A stretch of 64,000 bases of DNA from Thermoanaerobaculia bacterium (GCA_963719365.1 OY970380.1:1873295-1937294); one strand, 5' to 3'. Shown: positions 2,600 through 59,228, counted from the first letter of the stretch. A program made the numbers and translations. Notes: a model not told the origin generated them from the sequence alone.

Positions 2600-2629
2600 A
2601 ATCTGCGTTCATCTGCTACATCTGCGGAT
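2600..2629. repeat. ATCTGC-unit tandem repeat (family A), single arm
   Basis: aatctgcgttc-atctgctac-atctgcggat. Confidence 0.7.
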
Positions 2630-2634
2630 TCGCC

Positions 2635-2832
2635 TCAGGCCTTAACGTTCGGATTCAGACAGACGACCGGCTCCGCAGCATCCAACGTCTTCAAGTGCGC
2701 CAGCAATCTTGCGCGAACCTCAGACGGCGCACCCGAGGAGTCGAGGTCGAGGAGCTCGCAAGCGCGACGGAGTTGGTCCGCGCTCGTGGCTTGGCTCTCA
2801 GCGAAACGGAGTGCGTCTTCTAGAAGTGGCAT
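2635..2832 (-). CDS. Small hypothetical protein with a SAP-like helix-loop-helix
   Basis: 65 aa; the LRRACELLDLDSSG..EVRARLLAH pattern resembles a SAP domain. Confidence 0.5.
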   Translation of the reverse strand: MPLLEDALRFAESQATSADQLRRACELLDLDSSGAPSEVRARLLAHLKTLDAAEPVVCLNPNVKA

Positions 2833-2840
2833 AGCAGGTC

Positions 2841-2913
2841 ATCCGCAGATGTCGCAGATGTTCGCAGATTAACGATCGCCTTTGATCTGCGTTTATCTGC
2901 GTCATCTGCGGAT
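2841..2913. repeat. Inverted tandem repeat hairpin (family A: GCAGAT x3 / ATCTGC x3)
   Basis: atccgcagatgtcgcagatgttcgcagatt...atctgcgtttatctgcgtcatctgcggat. Confidence 0.85.
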
Positions 2914-2924
2914 CGTCTCGCAAA

Positions 2925-3641
2925 TCAGAATGCATCTGCAAGCCTGCGCCCAATGGCAGCGTAGCCCAGCGCTCCCGGATGGAAATGATCGATCGGACTG
3001 ATGCGCTCGTCGCGCACGAGAAGATCGGCGATCCGAACAACCGTGACGCCTGGCGTGGAGGCGAACTCCTGAATCAACCCGCTATCCCACAGGTTCACCT
3101 GCGTATCGATCCACGACGCGACGCTGGTACGCCGATACGGGTTGTAAAGCCCGAGGAGATAAATCCGGGCCGAGGGATTCATTTGTTGGATCACAGTGAC
3201 GGCACGCTCAACCCTCATGAGCGTCCGCTCGCGCTGATACCACGGCCAGACGCCGCTGAGCAGGCGCGCCCACGAATCGCCATAAAGGTCGTTCCCGCCT
3301 ACAGACAGGACGATGACGTCCGACTGCCCGACCGCCGCGCGCACGGCCGGTTCGTGCAGTGCTCGTACGACATTGGCGATTCGGGCACCGTCGATCCCGA
3401 AATTCAGCGTCGCGCCAACGACTGAGGATTTCGCTCGCAGCTCACGGTCCAACCAGCCCGGCAAACCGAGTTGCTGCTCGTCGCCGGCTCCGTGAGCAAC
3501 CGAGTCGCCCAAAACGATTACCCGAAGGGCGCCGTTACTCGAGTGCACCGGCCTCGCAATCTTTTCCCGATTAGTGCTTACGACAACGGCGGTCGCGATG
3601 CCGGCGCACAGGAGGAGGAGCACGATGAGTGGTCGCCGCAT
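2925..3641 (-). CDS. GDSL/SGNH-family lipase/esterase with N-terminal signal or anchor
   Basis: Motifs GDSVAHG, GGND and DHFHP. Confidence 0.85.
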   Translation of the reverse strand: MRRPLIVLLLLCAGIATAVVVSTNREKIARPVHSSNGALRVIVLGDSVAHGAGDEQQLGLPGWLDRELRAKSSVVGATLNFGIDGARIANVVRALHEPAVRAAVGQSDVIVLSVGGNDLYGDSWARLLSGVWPWYQRERTLMRVERAVTVIQQMNPSARIYLLGLYNPYRRTSVASWIDTQVNLWDSGLIQEFASTPGVTVVRIADLLVRDERISPIDHFHPGALGYAAIGRRLADAF

Positions 3642-3854
3642 GCATACAAGTACGCGATGAGGGAGGCATTGTTTGCGACGATAGAGAGTAAGAACCCGGG
3701 TGTGTGCGACTGGTACGCGAGCTATGGCACCTCGGTCGATGCGGCTCTGACGAACAAGACCGCGGCATCATCGGCGTCATACCTTTGATCATCGCAAGGG
3801 GGAGTCGATGACCAAAGGCCCGGCCCCAAGGGGAGCGGACGTCATTCGAAAGAT

Positions 3855-5900
3855 TCAAGGTTTGGCCGCTGCGAACACCATTTTCGCGGACTGATAACCA
3901 GCCGTTACTGCGATGGTCGCCCGCGCGGGTGGTGGTGAGCCGGATGTGACCGCGCTCAATTCCTGCCGGTCGAGGGGCCAGATCTCGTAGCGGCCGGCCG
4001 GAAGATGCGTCAGCAAGAGCCGGCCTTGGTCATCGCTGAACATGGGCAGGCCCTGGTATTGGACCATTCCTTCCCAGACAGGAATCGGCAGCAGGACTCC
4101 GTTGATGCGGATCAGCACCGCGACGCCAGTCAACGCGGCGCCTGATGTCGTCTCGCAATCGATTTCGAGAGAGGCGTTACCCTCGGGGACCCGGACGAGG
4201 ATGTCGTCTGCCCCTTTCGCGAGCGAATCGAATCGAGCGAATCCGATGGAGCCTGATCTTGGGAGAGCGAAAACCATACCGTAGTCTTCGGGGCTGACTG
4301 GCAATAGGAAGCGGCCGTCCTCGTCAGTAGCTCCTACAAGCTGAGTTCCGTTCCGAGTGCTTACGTATACGGCTGCCGAAACTGGCGCGCCGAACACGTT
4401 CGTCACAACGACCGGCCGGTTTCCGGTCGCCTTGAGCTGCACTTGGGGAGTCTGGTCGGTTGCCGTCTCGTCGACGGTGATCCATGATGTCCGCCAGGAT
4501 TGATATCCACTCTTCGAGACAGCGAGCATATAGCTGCCGGTCGGAAAGGCGCCCAGCTCGAAACGTCCGTCCTCCCCGCTCCGCAGCGTGACGCTTGTTG
4601 ATTGATCGTCGTTTTTCATCGTGACTTCGATGCGAGCATCGCGGATGGGCTGTTTACCGGAGTCGTCCATGACGTGCCCAAGAAGCCGTCGGTTCGGAAC
4701 GGAGATGGACCACCGGTTCTTATCGCCTTCGATACGCTCTGTCTCCCGCCAGAATGGAATGAGTGGCCGCTGCGTAACGGTCGCGTCATAGGTCCCCGGT
4801 TGCCAGACCTCTTCCGTCACGCTCCCCTCGCTGTCCGTCGTCACGGAGGAACTCCACGAGCGATCCTCGGGTTGAATGCGGACGGTGGCTCCGGCGAGTG
4901 GCTTGTCGTCGTAGCGAACGGTCACATCGAGCACCGACGGAGAGATCTGCATGACTGCCTCTGCCTCGCCCCCTTCGGTTAACGTCACGAGTTTGCCGAT
5001 TCGCTGAAGTGGATCCGCACCTGCGACGATCACACGGTATTTGCCTGGCTCGAGCGCCTCGACAAAAGCCTCCTTTTGTCCTCCCGGGAGCCGTCCGCTG
5101 TGCGTGAGCTCGTCGCCAGGAGGCCCCGGCAACAAACGTCTTACTTCCCAAACGACCTCCTCCTGGCCAAGTGCCGGAACGAGGCTGATCGTCAGCGATC
5201 CACCTTTGGACAGACGTATGGAAAGCTCAGTATCCGCAACGGCCTTGGGCAGGAGAACGGTGCGCCTTGCATAACCGGTCATGGCCACGCGAACAAACTG
5301 CGGCCACAAGCCGGCGACAGGCGCGCGAAAGCTACCTTTCCGGTCGGTCACCGCAAGTGAGGCGCCGCTGGGCAGATACACGCGGGCATCTCGGAGCGGA
5401 ATTGCGGTTTTCGCGTCGATGACCGTCCCCGACAGGATGGGTATTTTCTGAAGGAATACATTGCCAACCTCTACATCACGCAGTTGCCGTTCGACACCTC
5501 GGTATCCGTTGCTGTTGAGCAGCAGAGTACAGCCGCTGCCAGGATGGCGGAGATCCACGCCCGGCACCGGTATGCGCGTGAGAGACCACTTCCAGGTCAA
5601 ATCCTGGCATCGAAGCTCAAAATCGAGGGTCGCTCGTGTCGAGCCATCCGACAGCCGCGGGGCCAGCTTATGGTGCTGCGAGGCAGCGGGAAGAGTGAGT
5701 ACGTTGGCGCCGGCCTGGATCGTTCCGGTTGCGATCTGCTTGAGGTCAGAGGAGATCCACACGAAATCCCGGACAGTGTCCGAAGGGGCGACGGTGCCCG
5801 GGATCTCGTTGACAGGCTGGCAACGCTGCTGAAGGCAGAACGTGGAAGGCGCTGCTGCAACAGTCTGCACCGCCAAAAACGCGGCGATCAGGATCGTCAC
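3855..5900 (-). CDS. Secreted protein with multiple carboxypeptidase-regulatory-like beta-sandwich domains
   Basis: GTG at 5900 overlaps the upstream stop (GTGA) and gives the signal peptide MTILIAAFLAVQTVAA. Repeated G.V.D...P...A.V / TDxxGxF / GxY modules. Confidence 0.75.
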   Translation of the reverse strand: MTILIAAFLAVQTVAAAPSTFCLQQRCQPVNEIPGTVAPSDTVRDFVWISSDLKQIATGTIQAGANVLTLPAASQHHKLAPRLSDGSTRATLDFELRCQDLTWKWSLTRIPVPGVDLRHPGSGCTLLLNSNGYRGVERQLRDVEVGNVFLQKIPILSGTVIDAKTAIPLRDARVYLPSGASLAVTDRKGSFRAPVAGLWPQFVRVAMTGYARRTVLLPKAVADTELSIRLSKGGSLTISLVPALGQEEVVWEVRRLLPGPPGDELTHSGRLPGGQKEAFVEALEPGKYRVIVAGADPLQRIGKLVTLTEGGEAEAVMQISPSVLDVTVRYDDKPLAGATVRIQPEDRSWSSSVTTDSEGSVTEEVWQPGTYDATVTQRPLIPFWRETERIEGDKNRWSISVPNRRLLGHVMDDSGKQPIRDARIEVTMKNDDQSTSVTLRSGEDGRFELGAFPTGSYMLAVSKSGYQSWRTSWITVDETATDQTPQVQLKATGNRPVVVTNVFGAPVSAAVYVSTRNGTQLVGATDEDGRFLLPVSPEDYGMVFALPRSGSIGFARFDSLAKGADDILVRVPEGNASLEIDCETTSGAALTGVAVLIRINGVLLPIPVWEGMVQYQGLPMFSDDQGRLLLTHLPAGRYEIWPLDRQELSAVTSGSPPPARATIAVTAGYQSAKMVFAAAKP

Positions 5901-6268: not shown

Positions 6269-6407
6269 ACGCTAAAACCTCCAGACAGATCCTACGTCCA
6301 TACTGCTAGCGGCGTCTACGGACACTTTTGTAACGGTGTACGACAGAGCTTGTTCCGACGGAGCTGCATTCGTCGAGCTCCCATCGGCACGTTTACAATC
6401 CCCACCC

Positions 6408-7550
6408 ATGCCCGCCCTGATCATCGCCATCGCTCTCGCGACCTTCCTCCTCGCGAACGTCGCCGCGTATCGCGTGCTCGTGCGCGCGCATCCGCGCAGG
6501 CGGAGGATCGTCATCGCGTTGGTTGTTGCCGGGAATGCGATGTGGCTCTTCTTTCCGTGGCTGAATGCGCGGACGGATTTTTCGCGGGTCGTGCGGGCGA
6601 CGCTGGGGCCGCCGTGGTTTGCGTGGACTTGCGTTGCGATTTTGTATTCGGCGTTCGTGCTGCTCGTGGCAATCGGATGGATCGTGGCAGGACGGCGGGT
6701 GGCGTTTGCGCGGTTTGCTCGGTGGCCGTCGCGGGTTTTTCTTTGGACGACGTTGCTTGCGGTGGTGATTGGCGTCTGGAATGCGCTCGTGCCATTGCGG
6801 ATCGAGCGGGTGGCAGTGACGGTCGCGGGATTGCCGCGGGAGATGGAGGGATTTCGCGTCGCGTTGCTGTCGGATCTGCATACGGGGCTTTACACACGGT
6901 CTTCGCGGCTGGAGACGATCTTCAAGACGGCGGCGGCACAAAGGCCGGATGTCATTCTGCTTGCGGGCGACAACGTTGATGACGATCCGGTGTTCACGAC
7001 GAAGTTGTTGAATGCCACGCACGTGCTCGATGCGCGGATGCCGCTCATTGCGGTACTCGGCAATCATGAGATGTACGGCGATCCGTTTGATGTCATCCGG
7101 CGATTGCGCGGCAGCAGGATTCAGCTCCTCGTCAATGAAGGAACGTCCACAAGAAACGTCTGGATTGCGGGGATCTCGGACTTTGCGGCGCGGACACCGC
7201 GGCTGGCGCCGGATGTCGATGCGGCGTTACGAGGTAAGCCTGCGAGCGCGTTTCCGATCCTCCTGGCGCATCAGCCGAAGGCGTTCCCCGAGGCGATTAA
7301 ACGGGGATTGCCGCTAACGCTTTGCGGACATTCGCACGGAGGACAGTTTGCGTTTCGGCCGCTGCACTGGTCATTGGCGGGCGTGTTTCTTCCCTATCAC
7401 ATGGGTTTGTATCAGCGCGGCACGTCGCAGCTCTATGTAAATACCGGCACTGGATACTGGTTATTGCCGTGGCGGTTTGGGATTGGGATCTCGCCGGAGA
7501 TTACGGTCATTGAGCTGCGGTCCGCAGATTTACGCAGATCACACAGATAA
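6408..7550 (+). CDS. Membrane-anchored metallophosphoesterase (YkuE/YaeI-like)
   Basis: N-terminal TM helices; motifs SDLH, GD, GNHE, LAHQP and GHSHGGQ. Start placed at ATG 6408, after TACAAT. Confidence 0.9.
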   Translation: MPALIIAIALATFLLANVAAYRVLVRAHPRRRRIVIALVVAGNAMWLFFPWLNARTDFSRVVRATLGPPWFAWTCVAILYSAFVLLVAIGWIVAGRRVAFARFARWPSRVFLWTTLLAVVIGVWNALVPLRIERVAVTVAGLPREMEGFRVALLSDLHTGLYTRSSRLETIFKTAAAQRPDVILLAGDNVDDDPVFTTKLLNATHVLDARMPLIAVLGNHEMYGDPFDVIRRLRGSRIQLLVNEGTSTRNVWIAGISDFAARTPRLAPDVDAALRGKPASAFPILLAHQPKAFPEAIKRGLPLTLCGHSHGGQFAFRPLHWSLAGVFLPYHMGLYQRGTSQLYVNTGTGYWLLPWRFGIGISPEITVIELRSADLRRSHR

Positions 7551-7590
7551 AAACCCAAATCAATCTGCGTCAATCTGCGACATCTGCGGA
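7521..7590. repeat. Inverted tandem repeat hairpin (family A) overlapping the 3' ends of two convergent genes
   Basis: tccgcagatttacgcagatcacacagat...atctgcgtcaatctgcgacatctgcgga. Confidence 0.85.
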
Positions 7591-9344: not shown

Positions 9345-9384
9345 TGAAGAGTGAAGGGTGAAGAGTGAAGTTAGAAGTTCGAAG
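9345..9384. repeat. GAAGAGT/GAAGGGT heptamer tandem repeat (family B), left arm
   Basis: tgaagagtgaagggtgaagagtgaagttagaagttcgaag. Confidence 0.8.
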
Positions 9385-11905: not shown

Positions 11906-11939
11906 CCCTTCACTCTTCTAACTTCACCCTTCACTCTTC
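11906..11939. repeat. Family B heptamer repeat, right arm (inverted relative to 9345-9384)
   Basis: cccttcactcttctaacttcacccttcactcttc. Confidence 0.8.
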
Positions 11940-13382: not shown

Positions 13383-13474
13383 GAAGCGGAATGTTGAATG
13401 TTCACTGTTGAATGTGAATGTTGAATGACACAACCTGATCCCACACCCCACCCCCGACTCCCCACACCCCGACC
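13383..13474. repeat. Composite spacer: TGTTGAA heptamer arm (family C) plus CCCCACA/CCCGACT arm (family D)
   Basis: gaagcggaatgttgaatgttcactgttgaatgtgaatgttgaatg...cccacaccccacccccgactccccacaccccgacc, ending at the next ATG. Confidence 0.8.
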
Positions 13475-14609: not shown

Positions 14610-14611
14610 TT

Positions 14612-14675
14612 CACGCGAAGGCGCGAAGACGCGAAGATTTAACGAATTTCTTTCGCGGCTTCGCGGCTTCGCGTG
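14612..14675. repeat. CGCGAAG(A) octamer inverted repeat hairpin (family F)
   Basis: cacgcgaaggcgcgaagacgcgaaga...tttcgcggcttcgcggcttcgcgtg. Confidence 0.85.
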
Positions 14676-15946: not shown

Positions 15947-16020
15947 CTTGATTTTCGGACGTCTTGGACGGACGCGAAATAAGATTCGGGCAAAGCGGGG
16001 AAAATGGCAAGAACTAATTT

Positions 16021-16060
16021 GGGGAGCGGGGAGTTGGGGGTGGGGGGTGGAAGCGGGCAG
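16021..16060. repeat. G-rich heptamer arm (family D)
   Basis: ggggagcggggagttgggggtggggggtggaagcgggcag; shares its gtggaagcgg end with the copy at 54164. Confidence 0.7.
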
Positions 16061-19680: not shown

Positions 19681-20739
19681 CTAGTGGCGTGTAAAGGATC
19701 GTTTGGGACCAGTAATGCGGTGCTGCACGTCGACGTAACTCCAGCGAATCGGGCGTGGCTTGTCGTTGTAGCGAGTGATGTAGGTCATCAGCTTGCGGCG
19801 TAGGTCAGGAATCGATGTGAAGACGCCGCGGCTGATCACGTCGCGCTCGATTTTGCTGAACCAGATCTCCACCTGATTGAGCCAGGAGGAGTAGGTGGGC
19901 GTGAAGTGCAGCGTGACGTTCGGGTAGTCGGCCAGGAACTGCCTGACCCGCTCGGTTTTGTGAGCTGAGAGATTGTCCAGGATGACGTGGATCTCTTTGC
20001 CTTTTGGCTGCGAGGCCACGATCGACAGCAGAAAGGCGACGAACTCTTCGCTCGTGTGCCGGGCCGCTGTTTTGCCGATGACCTCTCCGGACTTGGTGTC
20101 GAGCGCTGCGTAGAGAGAAAGCGTTCCATGCCGGTAGTACTCGAATCCGTGGCGCTCGAGTCGTCCCGGTGAGAACGGCAGAACCGGGTCGAGGCGGTCG
20201 AGAGCTTGAATGGCGGTCTTCTCGTCCACGCAGAAAACAGCGGCGTGCTGCGGCGGGTTGACGTACAAGCCGATCACGTCGGCCGCCTTTGTCTCAAAGT
20301 CCGGATCGTTCGAAGCCACGTAGCGTTCGATCCGATGAATCTTGAGGTTCGCTCGCTTCCATACCGTCGCTACCAGCGTGTGACTGATCCCGAGCTTCTT
20401 TCCCAGCTTTCGGGTCGTCCAGTGCGTCGATCCATCGCTCGGCTTGCGCGAGGTCCACTTCAGAATGCGAGCTTCCATGGCCGGAGTCAGAACCGATCGT
20501 TTCCGGCCCTGCTGTCGGGCGTACAACCCGGCAATGCCTCCCTCCAGGAATCGGCCCTTCCACCGGCTCACGTAGCTCCGGTTGCATCCCAGCTTCGACT
20601 GAATCGAGGTGTACGGCTCACCCTCGGCCAACAGCAGAATCAACCGCGCTCGGCGTGCATCCTCGGCCCGCACCATCCTGCTCCGGGCTCGGCTCTCCAG
20701 TTCTTCCTGATCCGACCGCTTAAGTACCAGCTTCTCCAT
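19681..20739 (-). CDS. IS630-family DDE transposase
   Basis: HTH N-terminus; motifs CVDEK, YYRHGT, ILDNLSAHK and TPTYSSWLNQVE. The stop codon is formed by the target CTAG. Confidence 0.95.
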   Translation of the reverse strand: MEKLVLKRSDQEELESRARSRMVRAEDARRARLILLLAEGEPYTSIQSKLGCNRSYVSRWKGRFLEGGIAGLYARQQGRKRSVLTPAMEARILKWTSRKPSDGSTHWTTRKLGKKLGISHTLVATVWKRANLKIHRIERYVASNDPDFETKAADVIGLYVNPPQHAAVFCVDEKTAIQALDRLDPVLPFSPGRLERHGFEYYRHGTLSLYAALDTKSGEVIGKTAARHTSEEFVAFLLSIVASQPKGKEIHVILDNLSAHKTERVRQFLADYPNVTLHFTPTYSSWLNQVEIWFSKIERDVISRGVFTSIPDLRRKLMTYITRYNDKPRPIRWSYVDVQHRITGPKRSFTRH

Positions 20740-20791: not shown

Positions 20792-20884
20792 GTGCATCGA
20801 GCGGACTATTTCGCACCGAAGTGTCGTCAGTTTCGGTTTCGACCTGACCCCTCCCGCGGACTTCGCGCCTTCGCGTGCCTGCCT

Positions 20885-23338: not shown

Positions 23339-23526
23339 GATCAGTAGATTAGTGGATTAGCCGATCGATAGATTCAGGAATCGGAAGTTCCGAGCCACTC
23401 CGGACTCTGGTGCACTATCTATCAATTCACTGGTCTATTTTGCTCTGTTCCCACACCCCACCCCCCACACCCACGACCCGAAGCCCTTTCCGATCTACTA
23501 ATCTACTCATCCACTGATCTACTATC
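23339..23526. repeat. Inverted TAGATTAG/CTAATCTA octamer arms (family H) enclosing a family D C-rich arm
   Basis: gatcagtagattagtggattag...cccacaccccaccccccacaccc...gatctactaatctactcatccactgatctactatc. Confidence 0.7.
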
Positions 23527-28864: not shown

Positions 28865-28957
28865 TCACGCGAAGGCGCTCACGCGAAGCCGCGAAGAGTA
28901 ATAGCCAGCGTTATCCCTGGCCTTCTTCACGTCTTCGCGTCTTCGCGTCTTCGCGTG
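28865..28957. repeat. Family F inverted octamer hairpin
   Basis: tcacgcgaaggcgctcacgcgaagccgcgaag...cttcacgtcttcgcgtcttcgcgtcttcgcgtga. Confidence 0.85.
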
Positions 28958-35929: not shown

Positions 35930-35978
35930 GTGGGTAGTTTATCGAAAGGAGAGCGGACTCGCGAAGCGGACGTGGGTA

Positions 35979-36089
35979 GAAGCGGAATGTTGAATGTTGC
36001 GTGTTGAATGTGAATGTTGAATGACAGGCAGATCGCTGCGTTCCATTCAACATTCACATTCAACACGCAACACTCAACATTTCGCTTTT
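35979..36089. repeat. Family C (TGTTGAA/TTCAACA) inverted heptamer hairpin
   Basis: gaagcggaatgttgaatgttgcgtgttgaatgtgaatgttgaatg...cattcaacattcacattcaacacgcaacactcaacatttcgcttt. Confidence 0.9.
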
Positions 36090-36922
36090 CAAACAAACAC
36101 TCCCGCCCACCACTCCCCTTTCGAGCGCTCATCAACGATCGATAGGCCGTGTTCCGCGCACGCGGCAACGACCTCATCGCGTTTGATGACGAGGATGCCG
36201 CTGAGAATCAATGCTCCACCGACGTGCCGCTTCACGTCGCCGAGGAGCGGGATGATGACCTCGGGGATGATGTTCATCGTCACGATGTCGAAGGCGCCGT
36301 CGCGCAAGGCGTCCGTTCCGCCGATGAAGAGCGGCATCAGCGACTCATCGACGCCGTTGCGTGACCGGTTCTCGCGCAGCGCCGCAAACGCATCGACGTC
36401 GTTGTCGAAAGCGATGACGTCTTGTGCGCCGAGGCGGCACATGGCCAGGGCGAGGATGCCGCTGCCGGCGCCGATGTCGAGTCCGCGTTTGCCGGCGATG
36501 TCCATCGTTTCCAGGATCTCGATGCAGAGCGACGTCGTTTCGTGCGAGCCGGTGCCGAAGGCTTGCTCCTGCGGCACGACGAGCGCGTGGCGGTTGGTGT
36601 CGCTCGGAATCAGCGACGCGTCCGGCGCGACGATGAAATGCTCGCCGATGAACAGCGGCTCGAGCGATTGCTGATAGTGCTCGAGCCAGTCGATCCGTTC
36701 GCGCTCGGTGGCGTGGAGCTCGATACCTTCGAGGTCGCGCAACTCCGCGGCGGCGTCATCACGATCTTGCGCAGAATCGAAATACGCGGAAACGATCGAT
36801 TGACCGTTCGCCTCGGACGACGAGCTGCCGGTCGATTGCGTGAGGAACAGTCGCGATTGCACGAGATCTTCGAGCGCGAGGTCGCGCGCGTCGAACGAAA
36901 AATCGAGGATGAAGTCCTTCAC
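36089..36922 (-). CDS. prmA: 50S ribosomal protein L11 methyltransferase
   Basis: Motifs [21 protein letters not shown] and LSGIL. Confidence 0.9.
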
Positions 36923-43150: not shown

Positions 43151-43251
43151 CTGAATGTTCAATGTTGGATGTTGAATGTTGGATGTTGAATGGACCGGGG
43201 CCGGGCGCGCACATTCAACAGTCAACACTCAACATTCAACATTCAACATTC
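43151..43251. repeat. Family C inverted heptamer hairpin
   Basis: gaatgttcaatgttggatgttgaatgttggatgttgaatg...cattcaacagtcaacactcaacattcaacattcaacattc. Confidence 0.88.
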
Positions 43252-43986: not shown

Positions 43987-44480
43987 TGTATTGCGCTCGC
44001 CGGTGGCGAGCGCGTTGCCGGTTGTCGGTTGATTGCGCTTCGCGCGTTGTCTGTTGGTTTGTTGGCCTTACTCCATGAGGGATGACGACGCGCGAAGCGC
44101 AACTAACCGACAACCGACAACGCGCGAAGCGCAACCTCGTGGGGCCGCGTCAGCGGCAAAAGAAGGTAGCCAGCGGTGCGAGCGCAGCGAGCAACCCCTG
44201 GCACCGGAGGCCCACGAGACATCGTGTCGCGTCAGCGGCACTGGCACGCTCGACGGACGAATCCATTGCCGCTGACGCGGCAAACACCCTTCGCACGATC
44301 TTCGTTTCCAGGGGTTGCTCGCTGCGCTCGCACCCCTGGCTATCGTCAATCGCCGCGACGCGGCGAAGCCGCACCAACCGACAACTGAGAATGCGCGAAG
44401 CCGCGACCAACCGACAACCGAACGCGCGAAGCCGCAACTAACCGACAACGCGCGAAGTGCAACTAACCGATAACGCGCGG
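43987..44480. repeat. Nested repeat cluster: family E (CAACCGA + GCGAAGC) arms around an inverted GTAG-type REP doublet (about 44145-44364)
   Basis: gtagccagcggtgcgagcgcagcgagcaacccctgg (44166) and ccaggggttgctcgctgcgctcgcacccctggcta (44308), plus gccgcgtcagcggc palindromes. Confidence 0.85.
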
Positions 44481-47190: not shown

Positions 47191-47225
47191 TCAATGTTCG
47201 ATTCAACACCGAATGTTTAATGTTC

Positions 47226-48593
47226 GCCTCTTCACCAGAATGTGTGGGTGAAATCCGGATGAGGCAGATCTGCAAGTGAATGGTACAGAGCAAGTTCCGC
47301 GATTCGGAAGCTCCGAAAACCGTACGATTTTCTCATAGTCACTTTCGCCTTATTGTTGAGACCCTCCACGGCGCCCGCTGAGATGTGCTTGACCTTGAAC
47401 CAGTTCAGGAGCAAAGGTCGATGTTTTCGGAGCGATGCTGCGACCTTCTTCATCTGATCGATTCGGGACCGCATCGCTCGTGTGCACCAGGAATCGAGAA
47501 AGCGTCCCGCGTGCGGCGGTGACACGTAATCCCAGAACCGCTGAAAGCCTTCCTTGAGTAGGTAGGCGCGGACGATCCTGAGATTTTCCTCAGCAGGTCC
47601 GCCAGCTTTTCATGCTGGACCTCGCTGAGGTTTTCCTCTCGTTTCAGGAACAGCCACCGCGAGTTGGTCAATACCGGTTTGCCGTTCTTCTTCTTGAGCT
47701 CACGAACCTCTTCGGCTCGGATACGATCGATCGCTTTATTCATCATCGATGCGATGTGAAACCGGTCCAGGATCTGGATGGCCTTTGCTGCCCGCAGCCG
47801 GATGACCTTCAAATACGCAGGCCACATGTCGCTGCACGCTACCTCCAACTTCTCGGACAGCTCCCGGCCGAACCAGTTGAAGAATGCGTGCAAAGTCTCT
47901 TCTCGCCGGTCCTTCCCCATCCACAGCAGCCGTTTTCTCTCTTCGTCGATCTGGTAAACCAAGGTCAGATACTTCGGTCCTCCGTGTGCTTTGGACCCTC
48001 GCCGGTGCATGATCTCGTCAACTCCGATTGACTTGATCCCATCCAGCGACACGTGCTTACGTCCCCACTCCACGGCGTGCTCCACCGCACGGCTCACTAC
48101 TCCCCATGTCGTCGTAAACGTCTTCGCCACTTCCGACCAGCTCATCCGGCGTGCCCAGTTCGCCAGAAACCACTGATACGTCGTACTCACCCGGCTCTTC
48201 CCCTCCGCCCACGGAACACTCTCCACACGCACTCCACAGCGATGACAGTTCACTCGCCGCATCTGGTAAATCAGCGTCGCCGGGATCTGCCAAAGGGGCA
48301 CGAATGCGAACCGTCTCGTTTCCTTGCGGTCGTACAAAACCGCAATCGATCCACACCCCGAACATAACGGCCAGCTGTTCTTCCGCGGCCGGATGCGCAC
48401 CTCGATCTCCGTTTTATCCTTGTTCCATCCGACCTCTTCGTAGACGAACCCTGGAATCTCTTCCACCTGATTCAGAATAGACTTCACCAGCATCCCGTGC
48501 TCCCCGTGACTTTTGGTTTTTCGACAACTCCATTGTCACGGCTCCGAGCCGGGATGCTTTGACTTTTTCACCCACTGATTCTGAAGAAGACCC
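47226..48593 (-). mobile_element. ISL3-family insertion sequence (1368 bp) with 8-bp target duplication TAATGTTC
   Basis: TSD at 47218-47225 and 48594-48601; imperfect IRs gcctcttcaccagaatgtgtgggtgaaa vs gggtcttcttcagaatcagtgggtgaaa (22/28 match). Confidence 0.93.
47232..48493 (-). pseudogene. ISL3 transposase, frameshifted at an A-run (47584-47587)
   Basis: CxxC zinc finger; motifs GVDE, SDMW, DRFH and EGLNNKAK. Adding one A restores RKNLRIVRAYLLKE. Confidence 0.88.
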
Positions 48594-48700
48594 TAATGTT
48601 CAATGTTGACTGTTGACTGTTGACTGTTGAATGAAGGACCCAGGAAGCACGAAGACATTCAACATTCACATTCAACACCCAACATTCAACATTTCGCTTC
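48594..48700. repeat. Remainder of the family C inverted hairpin interrupted by ISL3
   Basis: aatgttgactgttgactgttgactgttgaatg...cattcaacattcacattcaacacccaacattcaacatttcgcttc. Confidence 0.85.
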
Positions 48701-48719: not shown

Positions 48720-48765
48720 TTCACTCTTCACTCTTCACTCTTCACTCTTCACTCTTCACTCTTCA
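48720..48765. repeat. Perfect (TTCACTC)6 tandem repeat (family B) directly before the rarA start
   Basis: Six exact copies plus TTCA, ending 4 nt before ATG 48770. Confidence 0.95.
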
Positions 48766-52566: not shown

Positions 52567-52729
52567 CGGGACGAACCTCTGTTTTGACTTGATTTGGATG
52601 GCAACCGCGGCGCGGGACACCTCCAGCCGGGCGATCGCGTGAATCCGTAAAAAACGCGGCAGTGTAGCTATTCCCGTCGCCGGGAGCAAACTGTACCGCG
52701 GCGCGTGCTATAAACTTCGCCTCGTCCCG

Positions 52730-54163
52730 ATGGCAAAAAAGAAGCAGAGCTCCGGAGCAGCGATCGATTGGTATCTCGTTTCCATCGAGCGCCTCAAGCA
52801 GATCGGTATCGTGATTCTCATCGTTCTTCTGGGCGGCGGTGCGTGGTGGTACTACACCAATCAGAAACGTAATCCGCGCAGCTCGGCCGAGGCAGCGATC
52901 GCCGAGGCGAGACAGGCGCTGAACACGCTCGCGGCTTCCAAAGATTTTCCAATGCATCGCAGCGATTTTGATCGCGCACAGCACAAGCTCGACGAAGCCG
53001 GCACCAAGCTCGCCGCCGGCAATTACCCCGACGCCGAAAGCGCGGCGGTGGAATCGCAAACCTTCAGCCGCGCCGCGCTCAGCGGAAAAGGAGGCGCGGA
53101 CAACGACGCGCAATTCCTCACCGTCGAAGGCGACGTACAGTTTCAGAAGTCTTCGACCAGCGACTGGAGTCCCGCCGAGACGCGCACGCCGCTCTTCAAC
53201 GGCGATTGGGTGAAGACCGGACGCAGCGCTTCCGCGGAGCTCATCTTTTCGAACGGCTCGCTCTACACGATCGGACCGGATGCGCTGCTCGAGATCTATT
53301 CGCAATTCAATGCAGCGACCAGCCGCAAGAACAATTCTGTGCAGATGCAGGTCGGCTCGGTCGAGGTGGCAACAACCGACGATGCTTCGAGCGTCCGCAC
53401 GCCCGGAAGCCAGGTGACGATCGACTCCGAGTCGACCACGCAAGTCGGTGTCGATCCGCAGAAGACAACCGCGGTGCTGGCGGAAAAAGGATCCGCTTCC
53501 ATCGCGCCGTCCGATGGCAGCGCGGTAGTGAAGCTCGCCGTCGGAGAAAAGATCACCGCCACGCCGCAGGGAGCACTTTCGGCCATCCGCAAACTCCCGA
53601 TGCCGCCTGCGCTCCTCACGCCGTCCGACAATCAGGTCTTTCTGGTCACGGCCGATTCGCGCGTTCAATTTTCATGGGAAGCAGTGCCGGGCGCGGCTGG
53701 CTACGTCCTGCAAGTCTCCCGCTCGCGCCTTTTCACATCGCTGGAGATCAACTCGCCGCGCCAGAAGACGACCGCTTCAGCGCAAGTGACCGCCGAGGGG
53801 GCGTTCTACTGGCACGTAGCAGCGACGGATGCAGCAGGCAACATCGGCCCGTTCTCCGCGTTCCGCCGCTTCCGCGTCAATGGAGCGGGCCACGAAGGAA
53901 CGCCGGCTTCGGACGCTCCGGCACCCCGGCTCCAACTCAAGCGCCCGTATTCGATCGGCGGACCATTCTTCATGATCGAAGGAGACACGGACCCTGGCGC
54001 GACGGTCCTCATCAACGAAGAGGACGCCGACGTCGAGGCGAACGGTCACTTCAAGAAGCTCGTCAGCTTCAACAAGGTCGGCACCAATCTGGTCGTCGTC
54101 AAAGCAACGAACGCAGCAGGCAAACAAACCCGGCAATCCGAGACGGTACACGTGGAAGAATAG
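52730..54163 (+). CDS. Membrane-anchored FecR-domain protein with FN3/Ig-like C-terminal domains
   Basis: TM helix, helical linker, FecR-like GD.VKTG..A.L.F.NGS, then W..V.GA..Y.LQ and G.TDPGATV.IN. Confidence 0.75.
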   Translation: MAKKKQSSGAAIDWYLVSIERLKQIGIVILIVLLGGGAWWYYTNQKRNPRSSAEAAIAEARQALNTLAASKDFPMHRSDFDRAQHKLDEAGTKLAAGNYPDAESAAVESQTFSRAALSGKGGADNDAQFLTVEGDVQFQKSSTSDWSPAETRTPLFNGDWVKTGRSASAELIFSNGSLYTIGPDALLEIYSQFNAATSRKNNSVQMQVGSVEVATTDDASSVRTPGSQVTIDSESTTQVGVDPQKTTAVLAEKGSASIAPSDGSAVVKLAVGEKITATPQGALSAIRKLPMPPALLTPSDNQVFLVTADSRVQFSWEAVPGAAGYVLQVSRSRLFTSLEINSPRQKTTASAQVTAEGAFYWHVAATDAAGNIGPFSAFRRFRVNGAGHEGTPASDAPAPRLQLKRPYSIGGPFFMIEGDTDPGATVLINEEDADVEANGHFKKLVSFNKVGTNLVVVKATNAAGKQTRQSETVHVEE

Positions 54164-54253
54164 GGAGTGGAGTGTGGGGTGTGGGGTGTGGAAGCGGACA
54201 GTCATTCGCCTCGGTTCTTCTCCGACTCCCCACTCCCGACTCCCCACTCCCCG
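54164..54253. repeat. Family D inverted heptamer hairpin
   Basis: ggagtggagtgtggggtgtggggtgtgg...ccgactccccactcccgactccccactcccc. Confidence 0.88.
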
Positions 54254-54312
54254 AAACCAGGGCAACGCTCTTGCAGCAAACCTCCCAAACACCGAAAAAG
54301 GACAAGATCTAG

Positions 54313-55341
<1,029 letters not shown>

Positions 55342-55446
55342 CGGGGTGTGGGGAGTAGGGAGTGGGGTGTGGGATTCAGGCGAAAGCTCATCTCGAATCC
55401 AGCTCCGTTTCATCTCCCGCACCCTACCCCCCACTTCCCAAACCCT
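55342..55446. repeat. Family D inverted heptamer hairpin
   Basis: ggggtgtggggagtagggagtggggtgtggga...tcccgcaccctacccccacttcccaaaccc. Confidence 0.8.
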
Positions 55447-55480
55447 CTGGCTCAAAACCTGCTCAAGACGCTGAAGAACC

Positions 55481-56341
55481 ATGGCTGCACCTGCTGACGT
55501 AATCCCCCGGCGCCCGACGCTGCTGTTCATCGTCGTTCTGGCGTTGCTCTTTTTTCTCATGAGCCTGAGCAGCCGCACGCGCTACATCGGCGAGACGCGC
55601 ACGATGTTCGAGCGCAGCGTCATGATCCTCTTCGCGCCAATTCCGAAGACCGTGAACTGGGCCGGCCAGTCGATGTCGGACATCTACCACGGCTATCTCG
55701 ACATGCGCCGCTCCGTGAGCGAGAACCTGCAGCTTCACCGTCAGATCGACGAGCTCACGACCGAGAACCTTCGCCTCCGCCAGTCCGAAGGCGACCTCCG
55801 CCGCCTGCGCAGTCTCCTCGGCTATACCGAACAGTTCACGATGCCGACGACGATGGCCGAGCCGGTCATGCTCGATATTTCGGGACGCTTCAAATCGATC
55901 ATCCTCGACCGCGGATCGAACACCGGCATCGAGGTCAACGACGCCGTCGTCAACGCCAGCGGACTCATTGGCCGCGTTGTGCTGACGACGAAAGACATGG
56001 CCAAAGTGCAACTGATCACCGACGGAAACTCGTCGGTCGGCGTGCTCATCGACCGGACGCGAAGACAGGGTGTTCTGCGCGGCGATGGCGCGGCCGCCGC
56101 GCAGCTCTACGACATCCCGTCATTGTCCGACGTCAAGCCGGGCGACGTCGTCATGACCGCGGGCATCGACGGCATCTATCCGAAAGGAATCCCGGTCGGC
56201 GTGATCACGAAAGCGGAAAAGGGGCAGGATCTGTTCAAGACCATCGTCGTGCGTCCATCGATCGACTTCGGCTCGATCGAAGAAGTGATCGTGCTGCACA
56301 CGCGCAAAATACCGAATGATGTGGTGAGGTACACACCTTGA
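55481..56341 (+). CDS. mreC: Rod shape-determining protein MreC
   Basis: TM helix, coiled coil, LDRGS..G and GIYPKGIPVG; follows mreB. Confidence 0.93.
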   Translation: MAAPADVIPRRPTLLFIVVLALLFFLMSLSSRTRYIGETRTMFERSVMILFAPIPKTVNWAGQSMSDIYHGYLDMRRSVSENLQLHRQIDELTTENLRLRQSEGDLRRLRSLLGYTEQFTMPTTMAEPVMLDISGRFKSIILDRGSNTGIEVNDAVVNASGLIGRVVLTTKDMAKVQLITDGNSSVGVLIDRTRRQGVLRGDGAAAAQLYDIPSLSDVKPGDVVMTAGIDGIYPKGIPVGVITKAEKGQDLFKTIVVRPSIDFGSIEEVIVLHTRKIPNDVVRYTP

Positions 56342-56844
56342 GGTGGCTTCGATTCGCGGTCGGACTCCTGATCGCACTGACTCTCCATTCGCTACTGGAC
56401 AGCTTTTTCCCGAACGCGCTGGCGTTCTTCAATCCCTACGTCATCCTCGTCGTCTATTACTCGATGGGCGGCAACGTCTTCGGCGCGATCATCGCCGGCG
56501 TCATCGCGGGACTCGTGCAGGACGCCTACTCCGGCGCCATGTTCGGACTTCACGCCTTTGCCCTCACCGTCTGCGCGTATGCCGTCGCGTACGTCAACTC
56601 CCGCCTCGCGCTCCGCGGCACGCTGGCGTTCGGCGCCTGCCTGGTCGGCGCCGTGATCGTGAACGAGCTCGTGATCTACATCCTCGTGAACATCCTCCTC
56701 AAACAGAAAGTGGAGATGTTCGAGCAGGGAATGATCGTAAAAACCATCTTCACCTGTCTTTTCGGGATGATCGTCTATCTATTGTTGACTCTGTTTTTGA
56801 GAGAAGAGCCGATCGACGCCACGCGGCGGCCGACGGGATGGTAG
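56338..56844 (+). CDS. mreD: Rod shape-determining protein MreD
   Basis: Hydrophobic protein with GLVQD..S...G motif; overlaps the mreC stop. Confidence 0.85.
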   Translation: MRWLRFAVGLLIALTLHSLLDSFFPNALAFFNPYVILVVYYSMGGNVFGAIIAGVIAGLVQDAYSGAMFGLHAFALTVCAYAVAYVNSRLALRGTLAFGACLVGAVIVNELVIYILVNILLKQKVEMFEQGMIVKTIFTCLFGMIVYLLLTLFLREEPIDATRRPTGW

Positions 56845-57084
56845 GTTTGCCTGCGGCGTTAGTTGCCTGCGGCGTTGTCGGTTGATTGCCTGCGGCGTTG
56901 GGCTATTGCCTGCGGCGTTGTCGGTTGGTTGCCTTCGGCGTCGTCACAACGGCCTACGGCATGCATTACTTCAACAGCCTGAACTTGCCTCACAATCACA
57001 ACAACAAACGCATTACCTGACAACCGACAACGCCGAAGGCAATAAACGCCGAAGGCAATCAACCGACAACGCCGAAGGCAAAAC
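56845..57084. repeat. Family E inverted repeat element filling the mreD-mrdA spacer
   Basis: (ttgcctgcggcgttg / tcggttg)n ... (caaccga / caacgccgaaggca)n. Confidence 0.9.
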
Positions 57085-59067
57085 ATGCGCGTCTACCGAG
57101 ATGACCAGAAGTTCCTGACTTTTCGCATCAACGCTCTTCTTTGGGCGATCGTCATCGTGTTCGTGTTTCTGGCGGGCTCGTTCTGGGTCGTTCAAGGCGT
57201 GCAGGCGGAGAAGTATCGGAACCTTTCGGAAGCCAACGCCCTTCGCGAGCTCGTCACGCCGGCCAAGCGCGGACTGATCCTCGACCGCAGCGGGCAAAAG
57301 ATCCTCGCCGACAACCAGCCGGCCTACTCGCTGTCGCTCGACCGCGTGGTCATGCGTCCGATCATCAAGAACGATCCCACGCATCGCGACAAGCTCGTGG
57401 CCTTCCTCGCTCAGGTTCTCGGCGTGCCAGCGCAGGAGATCGAGGCTCGATTCGAAAAAGGGAAGGCCATTCCCAACGCGCGGCCCATTCCGGTCGCGGA
57501 AGATCTGTCGATGACGCAGGTCGCCTCGATCCAGGCGCAGGCGGTCGCGTTTCCCGAGCTCGACGTCGAGCCGGTGCAGCGCCGCAACTATCCGTACGGA
57601 ATCATGGCCGCGCACGTGATGGGCTTCATTGGCGAGGTGAACGATAAAGACCTCACCTCACACAAAGAGCTCAGGCAGGGCGATCTTCTCGGCAAACGCG
57701 GCGTGGAAATGATGTACGACGAATATCTGCGCGGCCGCGACGGCGCACAGTACTGGCAATACGACAGTCACGGACGCCGCCTCGATGAGTATCGTCCGGC
57801 GCGCAAAGAACCGGTCGCCGGCGACAACGTCTACCTCACGATTGATTTCGATTTGCAGCGCCGCGCCGAGCAGTACTTCATCGAGAACGAGTTTGTCGGC
57901 TCCGCGGTCGCACTCGATCCGCGCAACGGGGAAGTCCTGGCGATGGTCTCGTCGCCCGCGTTCAATCCCAACGTTTACTCGCGCCGCTTCACGCCCGAAG
58001 TCTGGCGGACCATCGCATCCAATCCGTTCAAGGTTGAGCTGAATCGCGCCATTCAGGGACTCTATTCTCCGGGATCCGTTTTCAAAGCGGTCATGGCCAT
58101 GGCCGGCCTGTCCGAAGGTGCGATCGATACTTCGACCTCGTTCTTCTGCAGCGGCAGCGGCGTGTTTTTCGGACGCCGTTTCCGTTGCTACAACAAGAAC
58201 GGTCATGGCGACGTCAGTGTCGCCAACGCCTTGAAAGTCTCGTGCGACATCTTCTTCTTCAACGTCGGCGCGCGGCTGGGCGTCGACAGGATTTCCGAGT
58301 ACGCGCACAAGCTCACCTTCGGCGAAATCTCACGCATCGATCTCGATGGCGAGAAAGCCGGTCTGGTTCCTTCAACCCAGTGGGCCAACACCAAGCAGCA
58401 CCGCAAGTGGTATCCGTCGGAAACGATCTCCGTCGCCATCGGTCAGGGCCCGCTCATCGTGACGCCACTTCAGGTCGCAAACATGATGGCGGCGATCGCG
58501 AACGGCGGAACCGTCTACCGTCCGCACGTCGTAAAGATGATCGAGAAGGTCAACCCGGACGGCCACGTCGAACGCCTCCAGGTCGCGAGCGAAGTACTGC
58601 ACAAGGTCACGCTTGCTCCGAAAGCGCTGGAGACTGTGAGGCTCGGTCTCTGGAAAGTGGTCAATGAAGAAGGCGGCACCGGCGGCAACGCCCGCATCGA
58701 AGGGCTGAACGTCTCCGGCAAGACCGGCACTGTTCAGGTCATCGCGCAACACGGCTGGGTGAAGACCGAAGGCTTGCCCTACAAGTACAAAGATCACGCG
58801 TGGTTCGCATCGTTCGCGCCGAAGGACAACCCGCAGATGGTCGTGGTCGTCTTCGTCGAGCACGGCGGACACGGCGGTGTCGATGCCGCGCCGCTGGCCA
58901 AGCTGCTATACGAATCGCGCTTCCGCGAACAGGTCCTGAACGCCAACCTCGATCTCTCGAATCCCGACACGCTCCAGGCAATCAAAGAAGGACAAGCGCC
59001 CGTCCCCGGCCAGGTCAAGAAAGCGCCCGCTGCGCAAGAAGGCTCGAACCCGAACCTCGGACACTGA
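57085..59067 (+). CDS. mrdA: Penicillin-binding protein 2
   Basis: Motifs RGLILDR, R.YP, PGSVFK (SxxK), SCD (SxD) and KTGT. Confidence 0.95.
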   Translation: MRVYRDDQKFLTFRINALLWAIVIVFVFLAGSFWVVQGVQAEKYRNLSEANALRELVTPAKRGLILDRSGQKILADNQPAYSLSLDRVVMRPIIKNDPTHRDKLVAFLAQVLGVPAQEIEARFEKGKAIPNARPIPVAEDLSMTQVASIQAQAVAFPELDVEPVQRRNYPYGIMAAHVMGFIGEVNDKDLTSHKELRQGDLLGKRGVEMMYDEYLRGRDGAQYWQYDSHGRRLDEYRPARKEPVAGDNVYLTIDFDLQRRAEQYFIENEFVGSAVALDPRNGEVLAMVSSPAFNPNVYSRRFTPEVWRTIASNPFKVELNRAIQGLYSPGSVFKAVMAMAGLSEGAIDTSTSFFCSGSGVFFGRRFRCYNKNGHGDVSVANALKVSCDIFFFNVGARLGVDRISEYAHKLTFGEISRIDLDGEKAGLVPSTQWANTKQHRKWYPSETISVAIGQGPLIVTPLQVANMMAAIANGGTVYRPHVVKMIEKVNPDGHVERLQVASEVLHKVTLAPKALETVRLGLWKVVNEEGGTGGNARIEGLNVSGKTGTVQVIAQHGWVKTEGLPYKYKDHAWFASFAPKDNPQMVVVVFVEHGGHGGVDAAPLAKLLYESRFREQVLNANLDLSNPDTLQAIKEGQAPVPGQVKKAPAAQEGSNPNLGH

Positions 59068-59228
59068 TGTATTGCCTTCGGCGTTATCGGTTGTCGGTTG
59101 ATTGCCTTCGGCGTTCTCGATCGCAGCCTGAAGCACGCTTTGAATGAACAGTTTGAACTTGCCTGACAATGAAAACGACAAAGGCAATGAACTGACAACG
59201 CCGAAGGCAATACCCAACGCCGCAGGCA
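59068..59228. repeat. Family E inverted repeat element downstream of mrdA
   Basis: ttgccttcggcgttatcggttgtcggttg...caacgccgaaggca; shares the loop core tgaacttgcct.acaat with the 56845 copy. Confidence 0.88.

Follow-up and report, generated by a model that had tools for sequence, protein, structure and literature searches.

What are the hairpins of short tandem repeats that occupy the spacers of a 64,000-nt stretch of Thermoanaerobaculia (Acidobacteriota) DNA (GCA_963719365.1 OY970380.1:1873295-1937294, 60.9% G+C; hereafter the window), and what could have made them? A typical one consists of two arms of tandem units, most often heptamers, inverted with respect to each other round a short unique loop, and the presence of such heptamer-repeat hairpins in the window is confirmed here. 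The answer we favour, at odds that we judge to be about even, is that they are versions, devoid of cargo, of an element that in its complete state bears the gene of a four-helix-bundle protein (TIGR02436), an element resembling both the intervening sequences (IVS) of 23S rRNA and REPINs, the hairpin-forming doublets of repetitive extragenic palindromic (REP) sequences.

Tandem arrays were located with Tandem Repeats Finder (TRF) and the sequences were then inspected directly. Relatives were collected by an MreC search of species-representative genomes, which gave 79 loci (1.22 Mb); the MreC homologues at 78-95% identity come from sources named 'Thermoanaerobaculia bacterium' and 'Acidobacteriota bacterium'. 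All counts use the 78 loci from Thermoanaerobaculia or Acidobacteriota metagenome-assembled genomes (MAGs; L001-L078), one cyanobacterial outlier being omitted throughout, and together with the window they amount to 1.28 Mb, so that lineage-wide figures cover the regions round mreC. The gene order Big7-PALP-mgsA-4HBT-surA-fecR-mreB-mreC-mreD-PBP2-S4-guaA is conserved across the loci, and orthologous spacers are therefore comparable between genomes. Two kinds of hairpin count are kept distinct below, namely 'strict' calls (n = 102) and a test for an inverted 9-mer match within 150 nt.

About 23 intergenic arrays of 7-10-nt units lie in the window (Table 1), most of them facing an inverted partner across a short unique loop, and a short-unit tandem array was found at each coordinate listed in a first-pass annotation of this DNA. 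At least seven unrelated unit families (A, B, C, D, E, F and H) share the 64 kb. The annotation's view that one tandem-loop-inverted architecture is common to all of them holds across unrelated units; a local hairpin is not universal, since all three copies of B and the arrays at 13389, 13440, 16020 and 23450 are single arms without a local partner. Of 22 arrays of 7/8-mers, 21 are intergenic though only ~11% of the window is non-coding. A strict array detector made seven calls in the window, whereas all 20 second-order Markov simulations gave zero. Folding energies of nine hairpins in the window range from -31.5 to -77.8 kcal/mol (z -3.4 to -12.1), with at most 2 of 200 shuffles doing as well. 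The exact 9-mer inverted test is positive for 8 of the 22 window arrays; the remaining pairs are imperfect and were detected by unit matching (6 hairpins) or by folding.

The same architecture recurs throughout the lineage. TRF rows from the window and the loci peak at period 7 (346, vs 81 at period 6 and 88 at period 8), and the heptamer arrays represent 129 canonical units. An inverted 9-mer partner lies within 150 nt in 219 of 296 heptamer arrays, as against a direct partner in only 21 of 296, which puts arm pairing far above chance. At least one strict hairpin is present in 57/78 loci and at least one heptamer array in 71/78. The 102 strict hairpins in 1.28 Mb belong to at least 61 unit families and have arms with a median of 31 nt or 4.4 units (interquartile range 4.0-5.1) and loops with a median of 27.5 nt.

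A TIGR02436 gene lodged between such arms was found in one locus. L033:10472-10822 encodes a four-helix-bundle protein (PF05635, E = 1.3e-14; TIGR02436, 73.5 bits with a cutoff of 24) whose closest solved relative is PDB 2rld (E = 3.9e-17), an entry with five chains. The gene is the next one after guaA and has AAACCTG/AAGAGTG arrays on one side and inverted CTGGTTT arrays on the other (AAACCWG family), and the AAACCAG family is present as an empty hairpin in L019. At 10721-11170 of L033 the 5' part of the gene and an arm are repeated in tandem twice more, in truncated form (94-97% identity, 163-164-nt spacing). Profile searches, for which a four-helix-bundle profile was built from 120 database homologues and 15 locus proteins, detected no PF05635/TIGR02436 copy besides that of L033 among 10,659 open reading frames (ORFs) of at least 60 aa in the window and loci; the window itself has none, as the first-pass annotation had stated. 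The family of the L033 protein is widespread among Acidobacteriota: at E<=1e-5 it comprises 1402 clusters, the named ones from Thermoanaerobaculia and Terriglobia and many of them on contigs shorter than 2 kb.

Gene and arms were found together again on plasmids. A tblastn survey with the L033 protein returned 26 plasmid records, from which 23 loci were analysed, and 18 of the 23 four-helix-bundle genes are flanked by inverted arms, with scores of 14-40 against a maximum of 11 in 280 shuffles. Seventeen of these 18 have arms of period 7, usually with 4 units, and the flanking units include TAATTCG, CAATTCG, AATTCAA, GGAAGTC, AATCGTA, ATTTTAG and others. The hosts with clear arms are mostly cyanobacteria, plus one Chloroflexota, while the Bacteroidota and Spirochaetota copies are among the unclear ones; gene-bearing copies occur in three phyla, Cyanobacteriota, Chloroflexota and Acidobacteriota. 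Proteins flanked by the same unit share a mean identity of 78%, compared with 48% for those flanked by different units, a gap reached by 0/2000 label shuffles in a test that ignores kinship. Similar proteins with the same unit occur in different gene contexts and genera (L089 vs L085/L094; L098 vs L090/L096/L097), and two genes in one plasmid host have different units in 5/5 pairs. The plasmid genes sit between co-directional genes, often inside defence operons. The defence contexts (L081, L082, L084, L087, L091) comprise helicase/4HB/N6-methylase, DUF1156/4HB/Swt1-HEPN in two phyla, DrmD/4HB/MmeI and cas2/4HB/cas1, and such genes between cas genes were noted earlier (PMC3936711).

Other candidates for cargo fared differently. 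The first-pass annotation had tied repeats of this kind in other genomes to both four-helix-bundle and GxxExxY genes; the former tie is borne out by L033 and by the 18/23 plasmid copies, and no GxxExxY gene was found. More precisely, Pfam scans of 51 window ORFs and of further sets of 17, 19 and 114 ORFs from the window and loci contained no gene for GxxExxY/PDDEXK_3, DUF559 or a REP-associated tyrosine transposase (RAYT; Y1_Tnp), all of which it had named as possible companions; Pfam/NCBIfam scans directed at ORFs flanking or enclosed by arms were equally negative for these three. Genes enclosed by distant arms were rejected as cargo: the 46 long-range pairs of same-family arms are neighbouring hairpins round ordinary housekeeping genes, and the 42 closely bracketed ORFs are likewise housekeeping genes between neighbouring hairpins.

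The link to a four-helix-bundle element is favoured for two reasons. A small gene that is flanked by its own inverted repeat, co-varies with it and is far outnumbered by gene-less copies is the very pattern that exposed RAYTs, whose genes are described as always flanked by two inverted REPs with which they co-evolve (PMC2817692); on this reading, the hairpins would be to the four-helix-bundle gene what REP/REPINs are to RAYT genes. Proteins of this family are, moreover, encoded in the 23S rRNA IVS, the complementary ends of which form a 28-bp stem that is cut by RNase III (PMC4990558, where the family is S23p/four-helix-bundle).

Comparison of orthologous spacers revealed rapid turnover. At the FecR/mreB spacer the window has a GGGGTGT hairpin, L001 and L002, at an MreC identity of 98-100%, have one of GGGAGTC units instead, and in L004 the two stand side by side in tandem. 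The mreD/PBP2 spacer measures 3-9 nt in many genomes and 80-300 nt in others, where it bears hairpins of differing families. Counting genome pairs in which both members bear arrays at a given spacer, the two agree in unit family in 10/14 cases at MreC identities of >=97%, 35/73 at 90-97%, 115/342 at 80-90%, 25/443 at 70-80% and 24/358 below 70%. The repeats are hence not fixed, a point on which the mobile-system proposal of the first-pass annotation had been staked: both presence/absence and family replacement are seen at orthologous spacers of near-identical genomes. At the PALP/mgsA spacer the hairpin is retained and its unit drifts from GAATGTT through AAATTTC to GAATGAA (MreC identity 67-100%).

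What copies share is the arm. Within the window, similarity between copies of one family is limited to the arms and extends over at most 49 nt; the C arms at three sites are 94-96% identical over 46-49 nt, irregularities included, and enclose unrelated loops. L008 and L009 have the 5' arm in common, with their 3' arms on opposite sides of a conserved local segment. This arrangement, together with shared arms round unrelated loops, indicates that arms behave as modules placed round local sequence.

Several results weigh against the four-helix-bundle reading. The 1.28 Mb contain one loaded copy (L033) to ~100 empty hairpins, and the window contains no loaded copy at all; a search of 18,282 shorter ORFs for gene remnants in loops matched only the L033 duplicates. 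Five of the 23 plasmid genes have no clear inverted arms within 100-120 nt (2 weak, 3 with repeats that are uninverted within 100 nt), and the gene-arm co-variation comes mostly from Nostoc plasmids, with pairs that lack phylogenetic independence. At least seven unit families per 64 kb would demand many cognate genes if recognition were sequence-specific. We know of no catalytic activity of the four-helix-bundle protein. Inspection of junctions at FecR/mreB and mreD/PBP2, which was not systematic, revealed no target-site duplication. Orthologous loops are bordered by different arms in relatives, which would suit generation in place equally well. Two further nulls concern RNA. A run of at least 4 T within 12 nt downstream follows only 2/102 strict hairpins, and no RNA-level signature is therefore visible there. 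G:U and A:C pairs were compared between sense and antisense strands in the 92 hairpins of co-directional spacers, and the sense strand has no excess of G:U (196/3413 vs 237/3498; Wilcoxon p = 0.15), so that RNA-level selection cannot be claimed from sequence. With stems at ~94% Watson-Crick pairs and no such excess, the complementarity looks like the product of a symmetric, DNA-level process, a point in favour of the reading. A miniature inverted-repeat transposable element was tried as an alternative and rejected, since only the arms are conserved between copies, the loops are unrelated and the inspected junctions lack a duplication.

Generation in place under selection for a stem is the main rival. 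In this account, which we regard as unlikely overall though far from negligible, the hairpins are home-grown and do not move, a long stem behind a stop codon is selected for its action as terminator or insulator, and four-helix-bundle genes are opportunistic cargo lodged in the stems; slippage would lengthen the arms, their periodicity would let them pair in any register, and template switching at quasi-palindromes would copy one arm onto the other. It is consistent with the persistence of the PALP/mgsA hairpin while its units drift, with loops of orthologous local sequence between differing arms, and with the symmetric, near-perfect complementarity that DNA-level copying predicts. Any unit also seems to serve (61 families in strict hairpins, 129 canonical heptamers overall), and other cargo lies beside arms, namely, in L056, a pair of DUF4926 and DUF6883-like genes and, in the window, a 65-aa ORF. 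Independent slippage would not, on the other hand, give identical irregularities in arms at different sites of one genome, nor does the account sit well with unrelated families at one site in genomes that are 97-100% identical in MreC, both of them in tandem in L004, or with plasmid genes and arms that travel jointly between hosts and contexts. The terminator function is itself at issue: like Rho-independent terminators, the hairpins are stable stem-loops just past a stop codon and upstream of the next promoter-like motif, but the U-tract is present in 2/102, the arms of ~31 nt are far longer than usual and the 5' arm is G-rich. A run of at least 4 A lies upstream in 4/102 strict hairpins. The missing U-tract means that classical intrinsic termination is not expected, and on this ground we do not class the hairpins as intrinsic terminators.

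The position of the hairpins between genes is narrowly defined. The 5' arm starts a median of 2.5 nt past the upstream stop codon (<=10 nt in 54/66) and overlaps the stop in 17. The 9-mer inverted test is positive in 96/332 spacers between co-directional genes, 12/57 between convergent and 9/126 between divergent ones, the overlapping mreC/mreD junction (0/76) being excluded. At mreB/mreC, 63/64 spacers contain a TGGC-N8-TGCT motif at 28-38 nt from the ATG of mreC, and wherever motif and arrays coexist, all arrays lie between the mreB stop and the motif (40/40). At mreD/PBP2 a related motif is found inside the loop in several genomes and after the hairpin in L008.

The hairpins also have a hand. 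An inverted repeat reads identically on both strands, and a hairpin's hand is therefore intrinsic to it: the 5' arm has G>C in 94/102 strict hairpins, and among the 61 unit families 53 occur solely G-first, 7 solely C-first and 1 in either form. In the sense strand, arrays that follow a stop by no more than 15 nt have G>C (87/96), and those that precede a start by no more than 15 nt have C>G (34/37). Among the gene-bearing plasmid arms 8 are C-first, 5 G-first and 5 equal, and the idea that loaded elements have the opposite handedness was dropped. The same G-rich-in-sense rule has been published for the G-rich repeats of Xanthomonas and Nostoc (PMC4692102); here it extends, in the window and the loci, to units unable to form quadruplexes. 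The class is defined by architecture, placement and handedness, and not by unit sequence or G-quadruplex potential.

This bears on the proposal, made for Xanthomonas GGGAATC and Nostoc GGGGAYT, that such sequences are G-quadruplex-forming regulatory repeats, to which we give hardly any credence here. Family D (GGGGTGT/GGGAGTG) does have runs of at least 3 G, and the placement is as published (PMC4692102). Yet families A, B, C, E, F and H show the same architecture, placement and handedness without the G-runs that a quadruplex (at least 4 tracts of at least 3 G) would need, and most units in relatives (GTTGCTG, GGTTGTC, GTTCTTA etc.) are incapable of forming quadruplexes; the proposal could hold only as a side property of family D.

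A further possibility is that the arrays are binding sites for a protein that binds single-stranded nucleic acid, each subunit reading a heptamer. Such a protein, be it of the cold-shock type or the four-helix-bundle pentamer, might thereby tune translation or RNA decay, the hairpin being a stored inactive state. The arm length (median 4.4 units, interquartile range as above) would suit such a protein, as would the five chains of 2rld and the homopentamer formed by a family member (PMC4990558), the one-heptamer-per-protein binding of CspB as cited in PMC4679880, the lone C-rich arrays within 15 nt of start codons (34/37 with C>G), and the effect of heptamer repeats near start codons on Nostoc expression (bioRxiv 10.1101/2022.06.06.494920). 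The diversity of units fits poorly with one general binder, and 74% of the arrays are paired, which would hide the sites; on the sequences available, we think this explanation improbable.

REP/REPIN-type elements moved by a RAYT (an IS200/IS605-like tyrosine transposase) encoded elsewhere in the genome are another candidate. The hairpins here resemble REPs, bacterial interspersed mosaic elements (BIMEs) and REPINs in being inverted doublets that form long hairpins, lie intergenically near gene ends, fall into species-specific families and have many gene-less copies per gene (PMC2817692). REP units are, in contrast, imperfect palindromes of about 20-40 nt with a GT(A/G)G head, whereas the arms here are tandem heptamers that are not self-complementary, and a RAYT is a known DNA-cleaving enzyme, whereas the gene flanked here encodes a small helical protein without known catalysis (PMC2817692). 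With no Y1 transposase match in the Pfam scans of window and loci ORFs, and with at least seven families per window that would need several RAYTs, we consider this origin very improbable.

Among known systems, the 23S IVS shares with the four-helix-bundle elements a stem of ~28 bp from complementary termini (arms here, median 31 nt) and an enclosed ORF of the same family; the IVS stem is an RNase III substrate, and the IVS has been proposed to be selfish or mobile (PMC4990558). It differs in lying inside rRNA helices and, in the portion of that paper available, its termini are not described as tandem heptamers; the window elements are intergenic and ORF-less, and all copies here lie between protein genes, none of them within 23S rRNA.

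The Xanthomonas GGGAATC and Nostoc GGGGA(C/T)T repeats come closest in form (PMC4692102). They too are tandem heptamers with ~4 units preferred, 89-93% intergenic (21/22 in the window), placed either within ~50 bp after a stop, where the sense strand is the G-rich one, or ahead of an ORF, where the antisense strand is, rarer between divergent ORFs, and variable in length and sequence between close relatives; Xanthomonas has 70-75 convergent inverted pairs per genome, comparable with the 219/296 inverted-paired arrays here. They are described, by contrast, as one G-rich family per genome and read as quadruplex formers, whereas at least 7 families occur per window and at least 61 in the lineage, most of them non-quadruplex; family replacement at orthologous sites is a feature of the present repeats, and the four-helix-bundle link does not appear in the available part of that account (PMC4692102). 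The first-pass annotation's phrase 'poorly described' is too strong as it stands, since inverted heptamer arrays with the same placement had been published (Xanthomonas, Nostoc; PMC4692102).

The cyanobacterial heptamer repeats of Calothrix and Nostoc go by the name of short tandemly repeated repetitive (STRR) sequences. As cited in PMC4692102, they share with the present arrays several families per genome, an intergenic position and proximity to starts. The Nostoc TTTTGAA/TTCAAAA unit of bioRxiv 10.1101/2022.06.06.494920 is the AATTCAA/TTTTGAA unit that flanks plasmid four-helix-bundle genes; the available text of that preprint describes the cyanobacterial repeats as direct and regulatory, whereas inverted arms and an enclosed gene are the features seen here. 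TAACTGA repeats of Beggiatoaceae, cyanobacteria and Bacteroidetes are likewise intergenic, in 2-6 copies ending a few nt before starts, like the lone B and D leader arrays, but they are nearly all direct (169 direct sets vs 1 inverted) and use one unit across phyla (PMC4679880).

If the four-helix-bundle reading is correct, the arms would arise and disperse as DNA, through a copying process that acts on arms and not on whole elements, and the four-helix-bundle protein may assist their spread in trans. When RNA polymerase crosses both arms, these would pair as a ~30-bp duplex, which would end or cut the transcript, whether by being cleaved by RNase III like the stem of the 23S IVS, by halting 3' exonucleases or by both, and the hairpins would then serve as transcript boundaries. 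A lone C-rich arm beside a start codon would give a G-poor, unstructured leader, a possible cause of the handedness. Both the mobility of the hairpins and their role in RNA processing are what we infer from these patterns, and the same status applies to the statements that the protein would promote spread and that RNase III would cut the stems.

A bolder version, which we find rather doubtful, would extend this across phyla. Four-helix-bundle (23S-IVS-protein, Avd-like) genes and heptamer hairpins would form one selfish system, parallel to RAYT/REPIN but built on another protein, in which each gene lineage would recognise its own 7-nt unit and drive arm copying to sites just after stops. Gene-less hairpins (the cyanobacterial STRRs, Xanthomonas GGGAATC and the families here) would be non-autonomous offspring, used by hosts as RNase III-cut transcript boundaries. 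Possibly one subunit of a pentamer would bind each 7-nt unit, which, if so, would explain arms of 4-5 units.

Judged by third-position G+C and Pfam matches, the window is an ordinary bacterial chromosome, 88.8% coding, with genes that include hrcA-grpE-dnaK-dnaJ, cysS, mreB-mreC-mreD-PBP2, guaA, the end of ftsZ and two transposases; an Rfam scan of the window gave no rRNA or other family. The individual arrays are given in Table 1.

Table 1. Short-unit tandem arrays and hairpins of the window, numbered from its first nucleotide
Family and form	Span	Arms or arrays	Strand	Context	Fold (kcal/mol; z)
A single arm, ATCTGCG-type 9-10-mer x2.7	2601..2626			9 nt past stop of 65-aa ORF	
A hairpin	2844..2910	arms 2844-2869 / 2885-2910		15 nt downstream of minus-strand GDSL gene stop	-47.5; -8.3
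A hairpin	7521..7588	arrays 7521/7560		convergent spacer, arms overlapping both gene ends	-31.6; -6.6
B single arm, TGAAGAG x3.7	9345..9370			divergent spacer; C/T-rich in RR-EAL gene sense, 39 nt before RR-EAL start	
B single arm, opposite orientation (CCCTTCA/CTCTTCA)	11906..11939			40 nt before phosphoglucomutase start	
C arm, GAATGTT x5.7, no local partner	13383..13430	TRF 13389		directly after phosphoglucomutase stop	
D arm, C-rich strand, CCCACAC x4.4	13440..13473			ends 5 nt before next start codon	
F hairpin, ACGCGAAG / CTTCGCG 8-mers	14613..14673	arrays 14613/14652		convergent spacer	-40.6; -5.0
D arm, TGGGGAG x4.4	16020..16050			divergent spacer; C-rich in S8 peptidase gene sense	
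Two F-like units (CTTCGCG) only, marginal	20859..20877				
H hairpin, GATTAGTA / ATCTACTA 8-mers	23339..23524	arrays 23339/23493		divergent btpA/cysS spacer; 132-nt loop	
D arm	23450-23472			inside H-hairpin loop	
F hairpin	28865..28956	arrays 28865/28924		after GGDEF-EAL gene stop	-54.3; -7.1
C hairpin, near-perfect	35979..36090	TRF 35985/36044		between two minus-strand genes	-77.8; -12.1
C hairpin	43152..43251	arrays 43152/43211			-50.6; -8.3
E hairpin, GGTTGTC heptamers + GCGCGAAGCGC-type mini-hairpins	43987..44135				
E compound array, 25-31-nt units	44358..44479			20 nt from Big_7 gene stop	
Degenerate C-like array	47193..47243			after PALP stop; separated from next hairpin by ISL3 insertion	
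C hairpin	48595..48693	arrays 48595/48655		related hairpins at orthologous spacer in relatives	-31.5; -4.5
B single leader array, TTCACTC x6.6, perfect	48720..48765		+	ends 5 nt before mgsA start	
D hairpin	54163..54252	arrays 54163/54225		from FecR-like gene stop codon, upstream of mreB promoter-like motif	-47.5; -3.4
D hairpin, 3' arm degenerate	55343..55437			between mreB stop and TGGC-N8-TGCT motif	-51.2; -4.0
E hairpin	56845..57081	arrays 56863/57029		fills mreD/PBP2 spacer; loop contains conserved CGGCC..ATGCA motif	
E hairpin	59068..59228	arrays 59068/59190		between convergent PBP2 and S4-domain genes; arms match 56863-57081 arms	

Units of family A are 9-10-mers containing GCAGAT. The 65-aa ORF between its first arms (2635-2832, minus strand) has no Pfam/NCBIfam match; by eye we take it to resemble an SAP/HeH-type helix-extension-helix peptide. 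Two families differ in part from their first description: the F arrays at 14613/14652 and 28865/28924 stand, and that at 20860 is marginal, with two units only; E, given as CAACCGA plus a mini-hairpin, does have mini-hairpins with a GNA loop, and its unit is really compound, of 23-31 nt. The C arm at 13383 and the arm at 35978 share 94% identity across 49 nt. The arm at 13383 abuts the D arm, both being without a local partner, and the chimeric spacer thus formed (13383-13473) fits no simple model. An ISL3-family transposase (47450-48493) between PALP and mgsA is present in the window only and splits the degenerate C array from the C hairpin, and an IS630-like DDE_3 transposase (19681-20739) adjoins the two F units.

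Sigma-54 (-24/-12)-type GG-N10-GC motifs precede mreB (GGGCA..TTGCA, 54260-54275), mreC (TGGC-N8-TGCT, 55448-55463) and PBP2 (CGGCC..ATGCA, 56950-56965), and the orthologous spacers of L001-L078 are alike, which suggests a separate, unusual putative promoter for every gene in the mre cluster. As a window-wide pattern the motif was rejected, only 2 of its 9 matches being intergenic and upstream of a start.

Other inserted genes were met in the relatives. In L056 (6855-7521, mreB/mreC spacer) the DUF4926 gene and the DUF6883-like gene, likely a pair of toxin-antitoxin type, lie between a GAGGAAA hairpin and a further inverted arm; L047 has the GAGGAAA family there without the genes. A second class of repeats consists of long non-tandem G+C-rich palindromes (GGCGGGC..GCCCGCC; CGGCGAGACGCC-type arms) that flank inserted gene blocks in the mgsA/4HBT and other spacers of L010, L042, L045, L063, L066 and L070, the block in L063 including a Uma2-family nuclease gene.

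Heptamer repeats break short-read assemblies: 11/69 MAG contig ends in L001-L078 fall within 80 nt of an array, as against 4.2% of positions, ~4x the expectation, and the loop of the mreB/mreC hairpin in L050 holds a run of N. Being so over-represented at contig ends, the repeats limit the assembly of this uncultured soil lineage.

A literature search, with most subscription journals outside its scope, returned no paper linking four-helix-bundle/IVS-protein genes with flanking tandem heptamers, and within the same incomplete coverage no account of these repeats in Acidobacteriota, of their multi-family form or of turnover at orthologous sites. To our knowledge, bacterial genomes contain heptamer tandem repeats in excess, with no consensus on how these arose or what they do, and the 23S-rRNA-IVS/four-helix-bundle proteins are a large family to which no function has been assigned. 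The physical tie of the repeats to four-helix-bundle genes merges these two open questions into one testable hypothesis, which asks whether the gene family creates or recognises the repeats and whether the hairpins mark transcript ends.

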